Source of the DNA: a virus
DNA length: 20,667 bases
Virus record (IMG/VR): IMGVR_UViG_3300029428_000026
Span: 3,834 to 24,500 of that record
Direction: 5' to 3' (one strand)
This document shows, one piece after another, positions 2,826 through 20,667 of this stretch. Position 1 is the first letter of the stretch. Every line of letters starts with the position of its first letter. Under the pieces are notes generated by a model. That model was given only the letters and a program-made list of their open reading frames with translations, was not told where the DNA came from and ran no database searches. Both the position numbers and the translations under genes were made by a program.

Positions 2826-4199
2826 AGGAACCATCTCCCCGTCAGCTTCTTCCTCCGTCACATTCTCGGACTCGATCCTTATCCCTGGCAAATCGAGGCC
2901 ATCAAGGCATTGCTTCTTGGAAAGGTGAGGCTGGGAGGTCGAAGCGTGGCCATGGTTGCTCCGAACGGATCGGGAAAGACGAGCCTATCCATTGCGCCCG
3001 CAATCCTGTGTTTCCTTACCTATTTTCCTCGGGGTCAGGTGCCAGTCACGTCATCATCATGGATGCAGGTAGAAAAACAGCTCTTTCCCGCGCTTCGCCG
3101 CTATATGGATAACCCTTTCTTTGACGGCTGGACATTCAACAAAACCGAAATCCGCACGCCGGAAGGAGGATTTGCCGTGGGATTCTCAACCGACAACGCG
3201 GGACGCGCAGAAGGGTGGCATCCGAAAATCTCGCCCGACGTGGATCCCGTCTTTTACGTCCTGGACGAAGCCAAGACCATTCCCGACTCCATCTTCACCG
3301 CTGTTTCCCGCTGCACGCTCTTCAACGCGTTCATCACCTCGTCGCCGGGTGCCGATTCCGGAACCTTTTACGACTGCTTCCACAAAAATTCATCCCTCTA
3401 CTACAAAATCCGCGTTAAATACGAGGATTGCCCGCACATCGAAATCAACGATCCAGGCAAGGCCGAACGCCTGAAAAAAGAATACGGCGAACAGTCCTCC
3501 TTCTACCGCTCGGCCATCCTCGGCGAATTCACGGACCTTGACGGGCAATCCGTCATTTCCCGCCGCGCCATCATGGAGCTGCTCAACAACCCGCCTCCCT
3601 TTTTGGACACCGGGGAGACCTGCGGCGGCTTTGACTTCGCCGCCGGGGGTGATGAGAATGTCTTCGCGGCCGGACAGGGCAACCGTTTTTTCATCGCCGA
3701 CCACTGGGCCGACCCAGACACTGTAGGAGCGCGCGGACGTTTCCGCCGAAAGGCCGCCGAACTCGGCATCTCTGCCGACCGCATCTTTGCCGACGGCGAC
3801 GGACTGGGGCTTCCCATCATTGACGACTTCCGGGCTGAGGGTTTCCCCGTGCACTCCTACCGGGGAGGCTTCCCGGCAGATGACACACAAGCCTTTGTCA
3901 ACCTCCGCGCCCAAGCATGGAGGGCACTAGCCCGAGCCATCGAAGAAAAAGAGCTCATTCTCGACATCGACGAGGATACCGTTGAGCAACTGGTCGCCCC
4001 CCGCCTCCAGACGGACGCGATTGGGCGCGTCAAAATCGAGAGCAAGGAGGACATGGCAAAGCGGGGCGTCCGCTCTCCAGACCGTGCTGACGCGCTCGTC
4101 ATGGCCTGGCACGCGCGCCGGCACAGCGGACTTGTCCGGGAGCTTGGGACTTGGTATGCCAGACATCCGGCACAAAAACGCGCCATTGGCAGATATTAG
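2826..4199 (+). CDS. terL: Terminase large subunit. Proposed AGG start at 2826; the ORF track starts at TTG 2910.
   Basis: Walker A is VAPNGSGKTS. The conserved N-terminal LGLDPYPWQIEAIKAL is encoded at 2865-2909, upstream of TTG 2910. There is no in-frame ATG/GTG/TTG between the TerS stop (2817-2819) and 2910, and none in any frame across roughly 2806-2880. Confidence 0.9.
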   Translation, partial: RNHLPVSFFLRHILGLDPYPWQIEAIKALLLGKVRLGGRSVAMVAPNGSGKTSLSIAPAILCFLTYFPRGQVPVTSSSWMQVEKQLFPALRRYMDNPFFDGWTFNKTEIRTPEGGFAVGFSTDNAGRAEGWHPKISPDVDPVFYVLDEAKTIPDSIFTAVSRCTLFNAFITSSPGADSGTFYDCFHKNSSLYYKIRVKYEDCPHIEINDPGKAERLKKEYGEQSSFYRSAILGEFTDLDGQSVISRRAIMELLNNPPPFLDTGETCGGFDFAAGGDENVFAAGQGNRFFIADHWADPDTVGARGRFRRKAAELGISADRIFADGDGLGLPIIDDFRAEGFPVHSYRGGFPADDTQAFVNLRAQAWRALARAIEEKELILDIDEDTVEQLVAPRLQTDAIGRVKIESKEDMAKRGVRSPDRADALVMAWHARRHSGLVRELGTWYARHPAQKRAIGRY

Positions 4200-4201
4200 G
4201 G

Positions 4202-4242
4202 TTGACAATATATCAACATATCTATATGTGTTGATTTATATT
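4202..4242 (+). promoter_or_regulatory. Promoter-like AT-rich block with an operator-like inverted repeat, immediately upstream of the tRNA
   Basis: One candidate is TTGACA (4202-4207) + 17 nt + TATGTG (4225-4230). An alternative is TCAACA (4213-4218) + 18 nt + TATATT (4237-4242). Inverted repeat ATCAACATAT (4212-4221) / ATGTGTTGAT (4226-4235) matches 9/10. Confidence 0.45.
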
Positions 4243-4246
4243 CAAT

Positions 4247-4320
4247 CGCAGGGTAGTGAAACGGTATCATATGAGGTTCCTGTCCTCATGTCGGAGGTCC
4301 AACTCCTCCCCCTGCAACCA
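4247..4320 (+). tRNA. tRNA with anticodon CCT (decodes AGG), an initiator-type acceptor stem (C1xA72) and an encoded CCA
   Basis: Hand-folded cloverleaf. Acceptor CGCAGGG/CCCTGCA; U8 A9; D stem GTGA/TCAT; D loop AACGGTA. Anticodon stem TGAGG/CCTCA; loop TT-CCT-GT; variable loop TGTC. T stem GGAGG/CCTCC; T loop TCCAACT; discriminator A; CCA. Atypical points are C at position 55 and the 1:72 mismatch. Confidence 0.8.
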
Positions 4321-4343
4321 ACCTTTTCTTTTCCTCCCGCCGC

Positions 4344-5708
4344 AGGTTTAACGCCGTCCGAAATATCCTCAACGCCCCGAAGCTGGTCGCCCAACAGGAG
4401 ACCAGAATCAAGGAGCTGGAAACAGACCTCGCCCGGCAAGCCTTGACGGACCGGAGCCGCACTCCTGGCCGCCCTCAATGGTTTGAATACTGGGACCCTC
4501 TTCAGGGCGCCGGCTTGCAAACACTTATCGATGCACGCAACGAAGCCAGACGCGGCGCCTTTGCGCGGCAAATGCTCATCTGGGACGAGGTTATCTACTC
4601 GGACGGACTTCTGGGCATGCTCTACTCCCGGTTGATTGAAAGCGTTTCCATGCAGGGCTGGAAGATTGACGCCGCGGACGACAGCCCGGAAGCCCAGCAG
4701 CAGAAAAACGCCCTGGAAGAATTCTACAACTCCGTCAACGGACTTCAGCAGTCCTTCGGGCATCTGGCCTCCGCTCTGTTCTACGGCTACGCCCACCTCC
4801 AATATATTGAGGACGCCTGGGGCCGGAGGTTTGAATTCATTCCCCAGCGTTACTGGGTGCGGCCCGGGGAACTTAATGAGTGGCAATTTAACCCCCACTG
4901 TTATATCGGCGTCGATACCGGGGAAAGTGTGGAAGACGAAACTCTCGTCGTGATGGAGCACCGTTACCCCATCCTGTTCCCTGCTTCCCGCGCATCCTTT
5001 GAGCGCAACCACGCCAAGATGATCTGGGACAACCACATGGACCGTTACGGCTCCGCCCCGGCTATTATCACAGCCCCCAAGGAGGCAAGCGCCGCTGTTA
5101 TGGACGCACTTGAGCGCGCCTGCGAAGAGCTCAAGTCTGGCGCATCCGTCGTCCTGCCTCCCGGCTGTACAGCAGAACCTCTCAAGGCATCCTCCATCAA
5201 CGAAAACTACTTCCTATCCCGCATCAACATGGCCGACAAGGATCAGGTGCGGTTTGTGATGGCAGGAACCTTGACTGTTCTGAATGAATCGGGCTCCGGC
5301 ACGCTGGCCGGGTCTGCCCATACGGACAGCTGGAACTCGGTGGTCTCCGCCGTGTGCTCCAAGGTAGCGGAAGCTTTTAACGCCTCCATCAGCCCGCTGG
5401 TGCTGAGAGACGGCGAACCGCTGGCCCGCCTCCAAATCACCTTTGACACCGTTCAGACGCCGCTGCAGAAGGCCGAGGAAATTGCCACTCTTGCGGATGG
5501 AGGCGTCCGTCCCGAGAAAACCGAAATCGAAGAAAAGATCGGCATGTCCATCGAAGACGCGAAGGCAGCCGATCCCGCAGCGGCTGCCGTCAACCGGGAA
5601 CCGGAAGGCACATACATCCCCGCCGACGCTTACGAGCAGCTGCAGCAGCTCATTTATACCGGGCTCATGAAAGGATTTAGCGATGATCAGTACCAAACAA
5701 ATCAATGA
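4344..5708 (+). CDS. Portal protein, Mu gp29/DUF935-like. Proposed AGG start at 4344; the canonical alternative is TTG 4443.
   Basis: Resembles the Mu gp29 N-terminal region (..LQTLIDARNEARRGAF..DEVIYSDGLLG..). The frame is open upstream and encodes the plausible coiled coil MFNAVRNILNAPKLVAQQETRIKELETDLARQA. Confidence 0.85.
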   Translation, partial: RFNAVRNILNAPKLVAQQETRIKELETDLARQALTDRSRTPGRPQWFEYWDPLQGAGLQTLIDARNEARRGAFARQMLIWDEVIYSDGLLGMLYSRLIESVSMQGWKIDAADDSPEAQQQKNALEEFYNSVNGLQQSFGHLASALFYGYAHLQYIEDAWGRRFEFIPQRYWVRPGELNEWQFNPHCYIGVDTGESVEDETLVVMEHRYPILFPASRASFERNHAKMIWDNHMDRYGSAPAIITAPKEASAAVMDALERACEELKSGASVVLPPGCTAEPLKASSINENYFLSRINMADKDQVRFVMAGTLTVLNESGSGTLAGSAHTDSWNSVVSAVCSKVAEAFNASISPLVLRDGEPLARLQITFDTVQTPLQKAEEIATLADGGVRPEKTEIEEKIGMSIEDAKAADPAAAAVNREPEGTYIPADAYEQLQQLIYTGLMKGFSDDQYQTNQ

Positions 5709-7290: not shown

Positions 7291-8214
7291 AGGGCTACTC
7301 CATTTTGCTCAGCCGTCCAGTTCACCGATGTCCTGACCGCCTACTCAGCCGGCTCCGGGAACACCGAAGAGAACTCCATTATCAGCCGCATCGCGCCGAT
7401 CGTCCCGGTTTACGACCTCAATTTCCAGTACAAGGTCTGGGACACGGAATCTGCCTTTACGGTCCAGCCGATCCAGGTGGGACCGGGCGAACCTCCCCGC
7501 CAGACCGTCCTGCGCGGCAGGAACGAAACCGACACCCTTCAGGGGTACGGCTTAACCTTGCCGATTCCGGACGCCTTGCTGGGCGTCAACCGCGAAAAGG
7601 CGCAGGCTATCACCCTGGCGGAATACAAGCTCATCGAATCACAGTTTGTGACCTCGTATGAATATGAACGCGCCAAGCTCATCACCAGCCAGTTGCCTGC
7701 CGCAGCCGGTTACGGGGACTGGGCCAACGAACAGAAGAATCCGCTGACGGATCTGGATAATGCCATCCTGTCCATCAATGCGGCGACTGGACACATGCCT
7801 AACACCATCGTCTTTGGCATCAACGCCTGGCAGCTCCTGCGAGCCAACCCCATTGCCAGACAGGTGGTGTCATTCAACAGTGTCGGCCTCTTCAACGAAG
7901 ACCTGCTCCGCAATGCGCTGATTCGGCCTATCAGGGATATTTACATCGCAGCCATGCCCTACCGCGACGCTTCCGGCGACGCCAAGACCATCATGGAGAA
8001 CGAAGTCTATGTCCTGTACAAGGAAGACTCCCCGACGCAGTTCGACGCCTCTGCCATCAAGACGTTTGGTTTGTCCGGCAAGCTCCGCCGCGAAGTCATC
8101 ACGGAATACAAGCCGACGCCCGCTTTGACGCTGGTAACCAACCGCGTCTACTCGCTGACCAAGCTGACCAACCCGTCCGCCATCGTCCGCATCGACGCGA
8201 CGGCCACGGCTTAA
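7291..8214 (+). CDS. Major capsid protein. Proposed AGG start at 7291; the ORF track starts at GTG 7477.
   Basis: A 307-aa product at the capsid position. The frame is open from 7276 and encodes protein-like MATPFCSAVQFTDVLTAYSAGSGNTEENSIISRIAPIVPVYDLNFQYKVWD.. upstream of GTG 7477. There is no in-frame ATG/GTG/TTG in that stretch. Confidence 0.85.
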   Translation, partial: RATPFCSAVQFTDVLTAYSAGSGNTEENSIISRIAPIVPVYDLNFQYKVWDTESAFTVQPIQVGPGEPPRQTVLRGRNETDTLQGYGLTLPIPDALLGVNREKAQAITLAEYKLIESQFVTSYEYERAKLITSQLPAAAGYGDWANEQKNPLTDLDNAILSINAATGHMPNTIVFGINAWQLLRANPIARQVVSFNSVGLFNEDLLRNALIRPIRDIYIAAMPYRDASGDAKTIMENEVYVLYKEDSPTQFDASAIKTFGLSGKLRREVITEYKPTPALTLVTNRVYSLTKLTNPSAIVRIDATATA

Positions 8215-11409: not shown

Positions 11410-12057
11410 AGGCCTAATACTTACGACCCTACTTACAGCAATCGCAATGTGACTCCGCAGATTACGGGCGTCCTGGCGATTTTTCTCCCTGACGGCATCA
11501 AGGTGACCGAGGAAGGCGGCGCCTCCTACGTTACCGGACCTTATCAGTTCCCGGAGCCTCCTACTGCGCCTCCCGTCGATCCGACGGCAGGCCCCGCATT
11601 CCCCTGGGTGAGCTTTGGCTTGCTGGGTGCGTTCCAATCCGTAGCTACGCAGGTGGAAGGAGAAGTCACCCGCTTCTATGGCGGTCCTCTTGGTTACCGC
11701 GTCCAGCGCAAGAATACCACCACTGGGAAGCGCATGACTTTCACGACGCCGGACATGTCCCCGGAATACTTCCAGCTCTCTTTTGCGCTGGGCGGGGCCC
11801 CGGCAAACGGAAAGGAAGCCGTTGCTATCGGGCATGGCGGCGACAACAAAATCGAAGGTTACCTGCAGCTGTGGTATCAGAACGATATTGGCGAGATATT
11901 TCTTACCTACATCGGGCATGGCGCCTTGCGTCTCTTGCAGGACCCGGAACACACAACCGCGGTGGCGTCCGCGCAGTTTGAATTTGAGATGGATTACAAG
12001 GGTCAGTACCAGGCCACGCCGTCCAATATTCAGGATGTGACGACGCCCGCTTCCTGA
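11410..12057 (+). CDS. Putative major tail (tube) protein. Proposed AGG start at 11410; the canonical alternative is GTG 11449.
   Basis: A ~215-aa beta-rich protein at the tube position, followed by a strong terminator. In-frame AGG lies 5 codons after the upstream stop, in the context ATTCAAGCATCAGG. Confidence 0.6.
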
Positions 12058-12070
12058 CATACCAACCCAA

Positions 12071-12100
12071 GGGGCGCAAAAGCGCCCCGCAACCCTTTTT
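12071..12100 (+). terminator. Rho-independent terminator after the tube-like gene
   Basis: GGGGCGC (12071-12077), loop AAAA, GCGCCCC (12082-12088), then a T-run TTTTT at 12096-12100. Confidence 0.75.
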
Positions 12101-12110
12101 CTTCCGCTTC

Positions 12111-14231
12111 AGGCAACAGGCAGGCAAATATGATATACGGACCGTCACGGGACTCAACCAGTCACTGGTCGTGCGCGTGGTGGATTTCCAGGGAGATCCC
12201 GTCGATATGGGCGGCGTCACCCTGCGCGGAGCCGTTCGCCTCAAGACGGGTATTGCCGAGTTCGGCTTTTCCCGTGACGACGAGGGCAACGGCGTGATTT
12301 CGTGGGCCTCGGTACCCGCGGGCATGTGGTCCTACGATGTCTTCATGGATGACGGCAACGAGGAAAGCCCGCTTCTCTATGGATGCTTTGTTTCCTCAGG
12401 CCGGGTGACGCCGGACTTGCCGGACGAGCAGCAGGCGGTAGCGGGCGCGGTCGTCGTGCAGCTGCCGGAAGGAAGCGGATGCGTGCAGGTGGTGCTTGAT
12501 AATGCGTCAAGCGCCGCCTGGTACGCGGAGCAGGCCAAGAAGTACGCCGAGAATTTCAATCTTTCGGTGGACCGGGTCACTACCGGCGAGCCTGGCACTC
12601 CTGCCGCAGCGGAAGCCGTGAAAGGCTCGGAAGCGGGCTCTTATCTGTTGTCGTTTACCATCCCCAAAGGAGACGCCGGTCCCGAAGGCCCACCAGGCCC
12701 GCAGGGGGAACCGGGCGAAACCGGCCCCGAAGGCCCTCAGGGTCCCAGGGGCGACGCAGGACCTCAAGGTCCTCAGGGAGCGACCGGAGAACAGGGACCA
12801 AGAGGCGACATTGGAGAAACCGGACCGCAGGGTCCTGCCGGCCCGCAAGGCCCCGAGGGGCCGGAGGGTCCCCAAGGACCCCGTGGCGAGAAAGGAGATA
12901 CCGGGGATGTTAATCCGGACGGGTCTTATAACTGGACGCAGCCGCAGACCTACGACGCCACGATCACCGCAATCGAAGGAGTCCGTGTGCCGCTGCCCGC
13001 CACAGGGCAGAATGCCATTTCCTATGAGGGAATGATAACCATGACGGCTGCCGGCCAATGGAGCCGCACCAACTATTTTCTGGAATCCGTCATTCCGTCA
13101 TGGGTGACCGCCTTGGTGGAAGCCCAGTCGTTGAACACAAGCTACGCAATTGCTACCGCTAACGCCTCCCTGAAGAAGGGAGTATTTAATAACGACTTGT
13201 GCGATATGGTATTAACCATGACGGCGGCCGGGGGTGTTTCTGTTATCGGCAAATCCACGGGATCATGGAAATTTGCCAATTACATGGGCAACAATAGAAA
13301 TAACGAATATGCTGCCGCTTGCGCCTGGCGGATACTTGGCTCCGACAAGGTGTCGGTTCTCTTGGGCAGCACTGCCCAGGGGTACGCTACGACTGCCGAT
13401 CCGCTGGCGTCCTGCTATTCACATCCTGTGCACTGGGTGGATTATGCCTGGGATAATGCAAATTACAGGTATCCGCAAAACAATACAGTCAATGGAGCGA
13501 GAGGGGGCGACAATGTGCCGGCGTATCAGATCACTACCTACCCTATGGGGTATCTGGGGAGCAATAAGTCGGCCTTGATAAGGGGGACGTTTTACGGACC
13601 CCTCAAGGTAGATTCCCATTATGTTTGGGCATTGGCTCCGGCTTTTACCTACGTCTCCGCGGCCATGACGCCACCCAACCCCGATGACCAGGAGATTTAC
13701 AATCGCTGGGCTTTGTTTGTGGACAAGCAATATGTAATGGATATGGCTTCCTCCTTTTGGGGCGCCGGCAACACAGCATGCCTTACAACCAAATTCAAGG
13801 CGCACGAAGTCAGCGGGACTTATCAGGCGGGCCTCCGGATGGGAGGAATGAGGATAGACAATGCACCCTCACTGGGCATAACCAACTCCTGGGTCCTCAT
13901 GAAGGACACGGTAATGGAGGGCGTGACACCTAAACCAGTTCCAGAAGTAACGGCTTCTGCTCAGGAAGTTCCGGCCTCTGGCGGCGAGGTGACATTGACG
14001 GCGTCTTCCACCCTCTCCGAGGCTATCTATGTGCTGAACGATACCATGTGCGGACATGACCCCGCCGCTGTGTGGTGCACGCAATCCTCTGAAGAAATAG
14101 GGTCCGGCGGCGGCCAGGTTGTCCTGACGCTGGCGGCAAACACGACTGGACAACCGCGGCAGGTGTGGGCGTTTGTCGGCCACCATTACGCCGAGGCCGC
14201 CGTTGTAGAAATCAACCAATTAGCGCAATAA
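12111..14231 (+). CDS. Collagen-repeat tail fibre with a BACON/Ig-like C-terminal domain. Proposed AGG start at 12111; the canonical alternative is GTG 12171.
   Basis: Contains 27 uninterrupted G-X-Y triplets. A fibre-type motif, [10 protein letters not shown], precedes them. The C-terminus (13947-14228) fits the BACON-like pattern ..[35 protein letters not shown]. Confidence 0.85.
12669..12911 (+). repeat. Collagen-like G-X-Y triplet repeat (27 triplets) inside the fibre gene
   Basis: [81 protein letters not shown]. Confidence 0.95.
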
Positions 14232-15100: not shown

Positions 15101-15352
15101 ATGTGCAAACTCTCCGAAGTACCGGCGCGTTTCCTGGATTTTGCCAAGGCTTCACCCATGCTTGCCTGCGTCATGCTGTCGTTGGTCATTTGCGGCGGGG
15201 CGTGCTGGTACATCGGAGATGTCATGGGACATCACAACGACCGACTTTGCGATCTGATGACGATGCAGACGCAGGCCCAGGTAGAGACGGCAAAGGCTAT
15301 TCAGCTTCTTGCCGTCAGAATAGAGAATATCGAGCGGAAGCTTGAAAAATAG
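15101..15352 (+). CDS. Small membrane protein with one TM plus a coiled coil (holin or i-spanin-like)
   Basis: TM segment SPMLACVMLSLVICGGACWYIG, then helical ..QTQAQVETAKAIQLLAVRIENIERKLEK. It lies immediately upstream of the amidase. Confidence 0.6.
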   Translation: MCKLSEVPARFLDFAKASPMLACVMLSLVICGGACWYIGDVMGHHNDRLCDLMTMQTQAQVETAKAIQLLAVRIENIERKLEK

Positions 15353-15418
15353 TCAACTGTAAAGTTTTTCTTACAAGTTCATACATATTAATAACCAATC
15401 AATTAAAGGAGAATATCC

Positions 15419-15949
15419 AGGAAAATAGCCATTGATATAGGCCATGCCAACAACACCGGAGCCCGTGGAAACAGGCTTGAAGAACACGCCGTAGCAGCGA
15501 CGATTGCGGAACGCCTCGCGCCTATGCTCAGAAAGCTGGGCGCCCAGGTGGACGTAATTGACTTTCCGGCCCAGAGCAACACGGACGACCTGAACGCCAC
15601 CATCAAGGCCGCCAACGAAGGCGGCTACGACTTCGGGATTTCCCTGCATTGTGACTCATCGGATAATGTGCAAGCTCACGGCGCCCATGTGTGCTTCTAT
15701 CCCGGGAGCGTTAAGGGAAGCCGGCTTGCCATGTGCATCGCGGAACCTCTTGCCCGGCTGCTCCCAGGACGGGACTGCACGGTGTTGGCCCGTCCGGGGC
15801 TGGCCGTCCTGAAAAGGACGCGCTGCCCGTGGGTGCTGTGCGAATGCGGCTTTATCACCAATCCTGAAAATGCCGCCCTTATGAAGGACCATCCCGAAGC
15901 CATTGCGGAAGCCATTGCGGAAGGAGTGAAGGCCTATTCCAAGCTGTAG
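15419..15949 (+). CDS. N-acetylmuramoyl-L-alanine amidase (Amidase_3) endolysin. Proposed AGG start at 15419; the ORF track starts at ATG 15524.
   Basis: KIAIDIGHANNTGARGNRLEEH.., which includes the first zinc ligands, is encoded at 15422-15523, upstream of ATG 15524. There is no in-frame ATG/GTG/TTG after the stop at 15404-15406. AAGGAG (15406-15411) sits 7 nt before AGG 15419. Confidence 0.88.
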   Translation, partial: RKIAIDIGHANNTGARGNRLEEHAVAATIAERLAPMLRKLGAQVDVIDFPAQSNTDDLNATIKAANEGGYDFGISLHCDSSDNVQAHGAHVCFYPGSVKGSRLAMCIAEPLARLLPGRDCTVLARPGLAVLKRTRCPWVLCECGFITNPENAALMKDHPEAIAEAIAEGVKAYSKL

Positions 15950-20030: not shown

Positions 20031-20057
20031 ATATCAACCTAACCATATTCAAGCAGC

Positions 20058-20667
20058 AGGAACCATAACATTACCATAGATGACTTGCTGGCTCTCAAGC
20101 CATCAAGCCTTACGCACGATCAACAGAGCTTCTCCACGTCCACCATTACGGCAGTTTACCCCGTCAGGACGCTTGGAGAAACTTTACCGTACAAGCAATT
20201 CGACACCGTCACCATCTCCCAAAACGGGCAAGTCATCCTAGTGGGGCTGGTGTCCAATATTGAAAAAGTATACAGCGGCAGCCAGCGGTCCTGGAGGATT
20301 GTTTTTTCCGACCCCTGGTATTACCTCGCTAATTGCTATGCTTTGGAAAATGGATGGCAGCCGACGTTTGGGCTTTTCCCCCGTAAAGGCGTAGAGGGTA
20401 TTATTCCCAAGGTCAACCTGAGCGGCGCTTTGTCCAGCGTGCTTGACATGGCAAAGCACCACCCAGCCAGCTATGAGCTACGCATCAGAGACGACAAGCA
20501 GCTGATACCGTGGAATGCATCCTGCGATACTCTTCAAAGTCTGCTGCAGTCCATCCGGCGCTGGTCTCCGCGTATGGTCAGTTATTATGACTACACGGGA
20601 GAACGGCCCAAGCTCATCATCACGGACTATGACTCCCTTGAACCTATTTCCCTGCCGCTGCAACCCT
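20058..20667 (+). CDS. Distal tail/baseplate-type structural protein, 3'-truncated by the window edge. Proposed AGG start at 20058; the canonical alternative is TTG 20085.
   Basis: The frame is open from 20043 to the window end, so it is absent from the ORF track for lack of a stop. The sequence is protein-like (..VILVGLVSNIEKVYSGSQRSWRIVFSDPWYYL..). The two minus-strand ORFs listed here are shadows. Confidence 0.7.

Follow-up and report, generated by a model that had tools for sequence, protein, structure and literature searches.

To our knowledge, every natural start codon is read by an initiator tRNA with the anticodon CAU. In gut phages such as the crAss-like and Lak phages, suppressor tRNAs recode stop codons so that TAG or TGA is read as sense, mainly in late structural and lysis genes. 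The native Escherichia coli initiator supports initiation at codons that are not near-cognate at approximately 0.01–1% of AUG (10.1101/063800), and AGG starts are suppressed by IF3 (PMC6868393). When an engineered E. coli initiator tRNA-CCU was combined with an AGG start, the fold-change ranked first in five of six strains and second in Nissle 1917 (bioRxiv 10.64898/2026.04.16.719103), and the authors summarize the CCU/AGG pair as giving the highest expression across all six strains, above AUG in Nissle 1917 (bioRxiv 10.64898/2026.04.16.719103). The amino acid carried in such engineered systems is set mainly by the anticodon (bioRxiv 10.64898/2025.12.21.695813). With these constructs, AGG initiation by an initiator tRNA-CCU is experimentally established in principle. 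The open-access literature that we searched describes non-CAU initiator tRNAs that were engineered, but none from nature, and it reports AGG starts neither for phages nor for Akkermansia. Here, we analyze a 20,667-nucleotide (nt) stretch of viral DNA (IMG/VR record IMGVR_UViG_3300029428_000026, positions 3,834 to 24,500; hereafter the window) and its endolysin gene, which begins at an AGG codon. The endolysin is one instance of a genome-wide AGG-start system without known natural precedent, and the best overall explanation, which we consider likely to be correct, is that a phage-encoded initiator-type tRNA-CCU reads the AGG starts of late genes.

The window is the late region (packaging, head, tail and lysis) of a temperate Akkermansia muciniphila phage. 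Between 2298 and 17833, the window shares 82% identity with DTMo-2021a, an isolated Akkermansia phage (CP084202.1, unannotated). The same element is integrated within a 283-kb contig of an A. muciniphila metagenome-assembled genome and also occurs in other large metagenome scaffolds, where it adjoins an integrase. We resolved 23 + strand genes in the window, with identities taken from PHROG and Pfam matches, and 15 of them have an ATG start. The remaining eight lack a usable ATG, GTG or TTG and have instead an AGG a few codons past the preceding stop, at positions 2304, 2826, 4344, 7291, 11410, 12111, 15419 and 20058.

At the endolysin, an in-frame TAA (15404–15406, + strand) that is conserved in relatives closes the frame 5′ of the start. 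AAGGAG (15406–15411) and a 7-nt spacer lead to the AGG start codon (15419–15421, + strand, preceded by C at 15418), and the frame reads TAA AGG AGA ATA TCC AGG AAA ATA GCC ATT GAT ATA GGC CAT from the stop at 15404 through the AGG at 15419. A preliminary description of this DNA had placed the stop, the AAGGAG, the spacer and the AGG at exactly these coordinates. It had also stated that no in-frame ATG, GTG or TTG precedes ATG 15524, and this codon is indeed the first of the three kinds past the TAA at 15404–15406. Its statement that 15353–15443 is free of NTG codons (ATG, GTG or TTG) in every frame does not hold, given that a TTG lies at 15432–15434 in frame +1; this TTG is downstream of AGG 15419 and opens a two-codon open reading frame (ORF).

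The endolysin start was compared across 50 related IMG/VR loci and the isolate DTMo-2021a. The counterpart of codon 15419 reads AGG in 19 of these loci and ATG in the remaining 32. Eleven of the 32 ATG loci, including DTMo-2021a, share the leader of the window (..TTAAAGGAGAATAnnC..), and the other 21 are more distant (79%, 67% and 56% identity) and have different leaders. Near-identical phages with either AGG or ATG at this codon show that the two are interchangeable, as expected of a start and not of an internal arginine codon. One of the ATG loci with the shared leader (L045) has an in-frame TAA directly before the ATG at the homologous codon, and hence nothing 5′ of that codon is coding there. 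AGG 15419 as the start codon of the endolysin is thus supported by sequence comparison. The local RNA structure around this start shows no special fold (z = 0.05).

The protein started at AGG points the same way. The endolysin coding sequence (CDS) at 15419–15949 (+ strand) comprises 176 codons plus a stop, and its product matches Pfam Amidase_3 (PF01520) with 101.1 bits at a cut-off of 27. Positions 1–173 of the 174-position profile align to residues 3–171, and solved Amidase_3 endolysins (PDB 3qay and 4rn7) align from residue 2–3. The Amidase_3 zinc site consists of two His and one Glu, and in AmiP the site is His17, Glu32 and His85 with Glu145 as the catalytic residue (PMC9929850). By alignment, the predicted zinc ligands of the phage protein are His9, Glu22 and His77 (in the motif SLH) and the predicted catalytic residue is Glu142 (in CECG); the counterparts of His9 and Glu22 in 3qay are its His and Glu. 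The endolysin is accordingly annotated as an Amidase_3 N-acetylmuramoyl-L-alanine amidase with predicted peptidoglycan amidase activity. Automatic gene callers choose the ATG at 15524–15526 (+ strand), which is the internal Met36 codon, and report a 141-amino-acid (aa) product. A start there removes His9 and Glu22, and conservation in frame extends through the 105 nt 5′ of ATG 15524, which encode the beginning of the Amidase_3 fold including these two zinc ligands. The structural alignment that the preliminary description had proposed as a check therefore bears out two of its expectations: the AGG-started product has an Amidase_3 N terminus with the first zinc-binding His, with profile position 1 at residue 3, and a start at 15524 would delete the first metal ligands, both of which precede Met36. 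The exact 141-aa call is listed in 1905 blocks of a public assembly collection, which means that the prophage is very common in sampled metagenomes.

For the other seven AGG starts, relatives were counted as distinct sequence contexts across all fetched loci. The AGG is retained in 21/22 contexts of the terminase large subunit gene (terL, 2826–4199, phrog_2), in 23/23 of the Mu-like portal protein gene (4344–5708, phrog_113) and in 16/17 of the major head protein (capsid) gene (7291–8214, phrog_1005). It is likewise retained in 13/13 contexts of g11410 (11410–12057), the product of which is of unknown function and gave no match in a family search, and in 10/10 of the collagen-like tail fibre gene (12111–14231, tail-fibre PHROGs). 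For g20058 (20058–20667), which encodes a protein of unknown function and runs past the window end, it is 2/2, with just two distinct relatives to hand. The terminase small subunit gene (terS, 2304–2819, phrog_1482) has AGG in 12/12 contexts in register; four further contexts are mis-registered by two codons, and at least three of these contain the same CGCAGGAAAAAG. All seven genes are on the + strand. The AGG stands at the exact boundary where conservation begins, and the sequence 5′ of it is variable, with indels that are not multiples of three. Among the ATG genes, 12 of 15 remain ATG in every context found; g11006, g14236 and g17207 have relatives with a short N-terminal extension or a shifted alignment and an ATG nearby, and g19449 gave no relatives.

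The registers of the PHROG profiles fit the AGG starts. Positions 3–124 of phrog_1482 fall on residues 7–135 of the AGG-started terS protein, and its first NTG codon, ATG 2412, would remove the conserved N terminus. For the portal, positions 31–428 of phrog_113 fall on residues 32–418, and for the capsid, positions 14–274 of phrog_1005 fall on residues 13–264. Automatic calls in public metagenome scaffolds (L128–L131) shorten every AGG-start gene: the called versus AGG-started lengths are 141 versus 176 aa for the endolysin, 378 versus 454 for the portal, 245 versus 307 for the capsid and 686 versus 706 for the fibre. A 12-mer, AGCAGGAACCAT, is identical at 2823–2834 and 20055–20066, where it spans the AGG starts of terL and g20058.

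The set of AGG-start genes varies between strains, as is evident from the most divergent relative (L097/L165, IMGVR_UViG_3300010163_000397; 83% portal identity). In this phage, ATG stands in place of AGG at the capsid start codon itself, and terL has an ATG one codon downstream of its AGG, while the tRNA and the CAGG start of the portal are retained. A search for remoter phage relatives through the portal protein returned only matches of at least 83% identity, plus one C-terminal fragment with 75% identity.

The AGG starts also resemble ATG starts in their surroundings and differ from other AGGs in having a G-poor, unstructured leader. G makes up 11.3% of positions −20 to −1 at the AGG starts (n = 8) and 10.7% at the ATG starts (n = 15), compared with 28.7% at internal in-frame AGGs (n = 30) and 27.0% at other + strand CAGGs (n = 116). 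The minimum free energy (MFE) of positions −30 to +29 is −4.9 and −4.8 kcal/mol for the two kinds of start, and −14.6 and −16.0 kcal/mol for the two kinds of other AGG (Mann–Whitney p = 5e-5 for G content and 4e-6 for MFE). Both the comparative pattern and this initiation-region signature are far beyond chance.

The preliminary description had called the endolysin the cleanest case of AGG initiation and had argued mainly from a perfect Shine–Dalgarno (SD) motif. AGG 15419 stands as the start, and the motif does not carry the argument. Of the 23 + strand genes, the endolysin is the only one with an SD-like motif at SD distance, with 7 nt between AAGGAG and AGG; none precedes any of the 15 ATG starts or the remaining seven AGG starts. 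AAGGAG is found 21 times on both strands of the window against 11.8 expected, which alone is not beyond chance, and in three relatives (L039, L051 and L055), two of them of the AGG type, it is replaced by AAAGAG. A. muciniphila is listed among SD-scarce organisms (PMC10783764). On these grounds (one gene in 23, an SD-scarce host and a near-chance AAGGAG count) we reject the SD as a general start-selection signal, and the endolysin AAGGAG may be an auxiliary signal at most. Pyrimidine-rich tracts at 4321–4343 and 12089–12110 (for example CCTTTTCTTTTCCTCCCGCCGC) lead directly into the CAGG at which the portal and fibre genes start, and may be ribosome landing sites of the S1 type in an SD-poor host.

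The base at −1 is invariably C across relatives at seven of the eight AGG starts, the capsid having A, and positions −2 and −3 vary. An A37:U(−1) fourth base pair has been reported in E. coli (PMC10018350). We do not claim a corresponding four-base pairing of G37 with C(−1) (CAGG with CCUG), since there is no co-variation: a tRNA variant with A37 (loop UUCCUAG) still goes with C at −1, the capsid has A there, and C at −1 is common before ATG starts too (8/15).

The only tRNA of the window lies at 4247–4320 (+ strand), between terL and the portal gene. ARAGORN calls it tRNA-Arg with anticodon CCU, and it matches the Rfam tRNA family with 51 bits. In each of the 38 portal loci examined, this tRNA lies ahead of the portal AGG. 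In the window, the portal AGG at 4344 is 23 nt past the CCA end of the tRNA, and across loci this spacer is 15, 16, 20, 22 or 23 nt long, lengths that mark it as non-coding. The tRNA family comprises 16 distinct sequences. Its cloverleaf is supported by eight pairs with compensatory double changes, values reached in 0/500 shuffles, and all pairs except 1:72 are paired in 100% of the variants.

The features of this tRNA are those of an initiator in several respects. The window copy has a C1·A72 mismatch, G2:C71, C3:G70, A73, an encoded CCA and the anticodon stem UGAGG/CCUCA. The 1:72 position is C·A in 16/16 variants. One variant has changed A4:U69 to G4:C69 and G7:C66 to A7:U66 and still retains C1·A72, which suggests that the mismatch itself is under selection. 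The variant found in L135, L148, L149 and L167 has the acceptor CGCGGGA/UCCCGCA and the loop UUCCUAG (A37, G38 and U31:G39), and it retains C1·A72 and CCU. G29–31:C39–41 pairs are present in 12 of the 16 variants, and two have U31:G39. In E. coli, a 1:72 mismatch is a determinant for formylation and acts against EF-Tu and peptidyl-tRNA hydrolase. Conversely, an elongator tRNA-Arg(CCU) requires a Watson–Crick 1:72 pair for use by EF-Tu and normally has A20, the ArgRS determinant in E. coli, and A37, which carries t6A in tRNAs reading ANN codons. The phage tRNA has the anticodon of such an elongator, but its 1:72 position is C·A throughout, its D loop AACGGUA gives U20, and 15 variants have G37 while one has A37. 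The recognized initiator features are the C1xA72 mismatch, three G:C pairs and A11:U24 (bioRxiv 10.64898/2025.12.21.695813). The anticodon is CCU in all 16 variants, and the molecule is hence not a tRNAfMet by CAU anticodon or methionine identity. D-loop G19 is changed in three variants (GGTA to GCTA, GATA or GTTA), and the T-loop and D-loop oddities, noted for L097, L112 and L144, concern tertiary-interaction positions at which such bases are unusual.

An unbiased similarity search of 50,697 phage records points to the ancestry of this tRNA. Among the matches listed, the most similar annotated features are tRNA-Met(CAT) genes, with weak E-values of 2 to 7, and there is no tRNA-Arg among them. 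The three tRNA-Met relatives that we read are all mismatched at 1:72, with A·A in a Mesorhizobium phage, A·C in a Pectobacterium phage and U·C in a Streptomyces phage. The Streptomyces-phage tRNA-Met has 21 consecutive bases, covering the D arm and the anticodon stem, identical to the commonest Akkermansia-phage variant, and its anticodon loop is CUCAUAA versus UUCCUGU in the Akkermansia-phage tRNA. Scanning IMG/VR with the 15-mer of the anticodon stem-loop gave 40 extra loci, of which only two had a tRNA, both in the same phage family. A scan for the same scaffold with any anticodon loop found just CCU, in this family, and CAU, in two Streptomyces-phage-like contigs. From its sequence, the phage tRNA is best described as an initiator-type tRNA with a rewritten anticodon loop, and we propose that it would work like an initiator, although it is not tRNAfMet. 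Mesorhizobium phage vB_MseS-P1 carries an unannotated initiator-type tRNA-Met(CAU) with A1·A72 (PP232116.1 6210–6284; L125 3000–3074), located inside a CDS annotated as ‘transcriptional repressor’.

Upstream of the tRNA gene, an inverted repeat with 20-nt arms and TTGACA (4202–4245; 80% complementary, 4-nt gap) ends 1 nt before the tRNA, and relatives carry a similar palindromic TTGACA/TTTACA element. We regard it as a candidate promoter or operator for the tRNA.

Taken together, these features suggest a mechanism in which the phage would encode a second initiator-type tRNA that has CCU in place of CAU as its anticodon. By pairing with AGG in the ribosomal P site, this tRNA would make AGG, usually as CAGG, the start codon of a subset of late genes (endolysin, both terminase subunits, portal, major capsid, tail fibre and two unknowns), while the remaining 15 + strand genes use ATG. 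Start choice would otherwise proceed as in the ATG genes of an SD-poor host, through a G-poor, unstructured leader. The start position, the AGG/ATG interchange at homologous starts, the conservation of AGG, and the initiator features and ancestry of the tRNA are read directly from the compared sequences. That the phage tRNA decodes the AGG starts is supported indirectly, by its initiator hallmarks, its CCU anticodon and its presence in every related contig checked. A bacterial initiator tRNA would also be formylated, bind IF2 and enter the P site directly. The tRNA would be charged, most likely with arginine, given that the anticodon dominates recognition by ArgRS and largely dictates charging in engineered systems. 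Late-protein synthesis would be gated by its dependence on the tRNA, as the gene set and the TTGACA inverted repeat upstream of the tRNA suggest. We lean towards the fuller picture of a natural ‘private start codon’, by which packaging, capsid, tail-fibre and, in many strains, lysis proteins would begin at AGG with a residue other than methionine, probably arginine, and their synthesis would be gated by the tRNA's own palindrome-flanked promoter; we hold this with less confidence than the decoding of AGG starts by the tRNA.

Several points weigh against this interpretation. U11:A24 is present in 16/16 variants in place of the initiator pair A11:U24, and the window copy and one other variant have A29:U41 plus two G:C pairs instead of three G:C pairs. 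The T loop (4300–4306) is UCCAACU in most copies, with C at position 55 for the usual U, and UUCAACU in a few. Charging is uncertain, as E. coli ArgRS uses A20 and the phage tRNA has U20, and a basic aminoacyl group should, as with Lys in E. coli, be a poor substrate for formylation. Internally, AGG is an ordinary arginine codon (31 of 317 arginine codons), so the phage also depends on the host elongator for AGG. For the endolysin in particular, the in-frame ATA 15413 and ATA 15425 are conserved in relatives. Finally, the AGG-start and tRNA interpretation is drawn from sequence comparison.

The conserved ATA codons are the basis of one alternative, in which the endolysin starts at the near-cognate ATA 15413, ATA 15425 or ATT 15431 through the host fMet-tRNA and the tRNA-CCU is a mere elongator supplement. 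Each of the three is a conserved in-frame codon, initiation at AUA and AUU amounts to 0.02–3% of AUG in E. coli (10.1101/063800), and the 31 internal AGG codons would give an elongator something to read. However, ATA 15413 is just 1 nt past the SD-like motif, an in-frame TAA separates the ATA from the ATG start in L045, and the other seven AGG genes have no conserved near-cognate codon upstream. The swaps between AGG and ATG at homologous starts of the endolysin and the capsid, and the terL ATG one codon downstream, also count against it. As for the elongator role, C1·A72 in all 16 variants is not expected of an elongator, the usual A20 and A37 of tRNA-Arg(CCU) are absent (apart from A37 in one variant), and the nearest annotated relatives among the matches listed are tRNA-Met and not tRNA-Arg. 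A host-initiator start at ATA 15413 or 15425 is thus disfavoured, and we consider this alternative as a whole improbable.

A host fMet-tRNA(CAU) could instead read AGG itself with a central mismatch, which would make the phage tRNA irrelevant to initiation. Low-level AGG initiation by the native initiator is measurable in E. coli, but at most at approximately 1% of AUG and under suppression by IF3, too little to be plausible for eight essential late proteins, the major capsid among them. Such decoding by the host also leaves unexplained why an initiator-type tRNA with the exactly complementary anticodon lies beside AGG starts in every contig checked, and we find this slightly less probable still. 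Least credible, to the point of being nearly negligible, is a 5′-damaged pseudogene or sequencing artefact from which only the 141-aa product of ATG 15524, or nothing, is made. Automatic gene callers do report the 141-aa ORF everywhere, but the conserved in-frame 105 nt before ATG 15524 encode the start of the Amidase_3 fold, and the shortened protein lacks both zinc ligands encoded there. Moreover, 19 loci assembled independently of one another all have the AGG, and the shortened call is likewise repeated in the 1905 assembly blocks. An initiator-type tRNA-CCU reading AGG remains the preferred explanation.

Elsewhere in the window, PHROG and Pfam matches identify a head protease (from 5683) and a tape-measure-like protein (from 17516). 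An 83-aa protein (15101–15352) adjoins the endolysin upstream; it has an ATG start, a hydrophobic central segment and no family match, and is a holin candidate. The leftward genes of the window have canonical starts, among them that of a 311-aa protein (80–1015, − strand), which begins with ATG, has several weak helix-turn-helix matches (HTH_17, HTH_23 and HTH_3) and is probably a regulator. At 1649–1680, a strong hairpin of 14 bp is flanked on either side by T runs and resembles a bidirectional terminator; on its 3′ side, the − strand ORF 1680–2198 is followed directly by this hairpin, and the rightward late block follows approximately 600 nt on, at 2304. A second hairpin, GGGGCGC-AAAA-GCGCCCC at 12071–12088 with a T-rich tract to 12107, stands between the stop of g11410 (12057) and the fibre AGG at 12111 and is terminator-like although it is inside the late gene block. 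A scan of the window for consensus promoters and terminators gave no enrichment compared with shuffles.

If true, the existence in nature of a second initiator tRNA that reads AGG would add a new kind of variation to the genetic code, located at initiation, and would be the initiation-level counterpart of stop-codon recoding in phages. It would mean that evolution has reached the same CCU/AGG pair that synthetic biologists find most effective, and it would explain why gene callers systematically shorten essential genes in a very common Akkermansia prophage. For a gut bacterium of therapeutic relevance, the system would also supply an orthogonal initiation part that is ready to use, and it would serve as a testable model for translational gating of lysis and virion assembly.

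Like other Amidase_3 endolysins (the CD27L catalytic domain 3qay, 4rn7 and AmiP), the phage endolysin is a single-domain amidase of approximately 175 aa that combines a zinc site of the His-Glu-His type with a catalytic Glu, and the domain begins 2–3 residues past the start of the phage protein; the sole difference is the start codon. Near-cognate starts (GUG, UUG, the AUU of infC, AUA and CUG) are likewise non-AUG, but they are one wobble-tolerant position off AUG and use the normal initiator, whereas AGG departs from AUG in the middle base and appears to be served by a tRNA of its own.

That tRNA shares C1·A72, G2:C71, C3:G70, A73 and CCA with E. coli tRNAfMet (metZWV/metY). The acceptor ends, CGCAGGG...CCCUGCA-A-CCA in the phage and CGCGGGG...CCCCGCA-A-CCA in E. 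coli, are one pair apart, and most members of the phage family also have G:C pairs at 29–31/39–41. The phage tRNA differs from tRNAfMet in its CCU anticodon, so that recognition by MetRS is not expected, in the lack of A11:U24 and in its loop, UUCCUGU versus CUCAUAA. Among the matches listed, its nearest annotated relatives are the phage tRNA-Met(CAU) of Streptomyces phage CeilingFan and relatives, Mesorhizobium phage vB_MseS-P1 and Pectobacterium phage Wc4, and the CeilingFan tRNA-Met shares GTGAAACGGTATCACGCGGGG and CCCGAAT with the commonest Akkermansia-phage variant. These relatives likewise lack A11:U24, but they keep CAU and hence read ordinary AUG.

With stop-codon recoding in gut phages, the AGG system has in common that a phage tRNA would alter the meaning of a codon, mostly in late genes, which suggests translational gating of the lytic programme; recoding acts at termination and elongation, whereas the AGG system would act at initiation. 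The engineered i-tRNA-CCU/AGG pair of E. coli is alike in its initiator-type body, its non-CAU anticodon and its complementary non-AUG start. The phage scaffold is unlike E. coli tRNAfMet in having U11:A24, usually G37 and often C55, and its function is predicted from sequence. In contrast to the engineered initiator tRNAs, the phage system is natural, resides in Akkermansia and serves at least eight genes per genome beside ATG genes.

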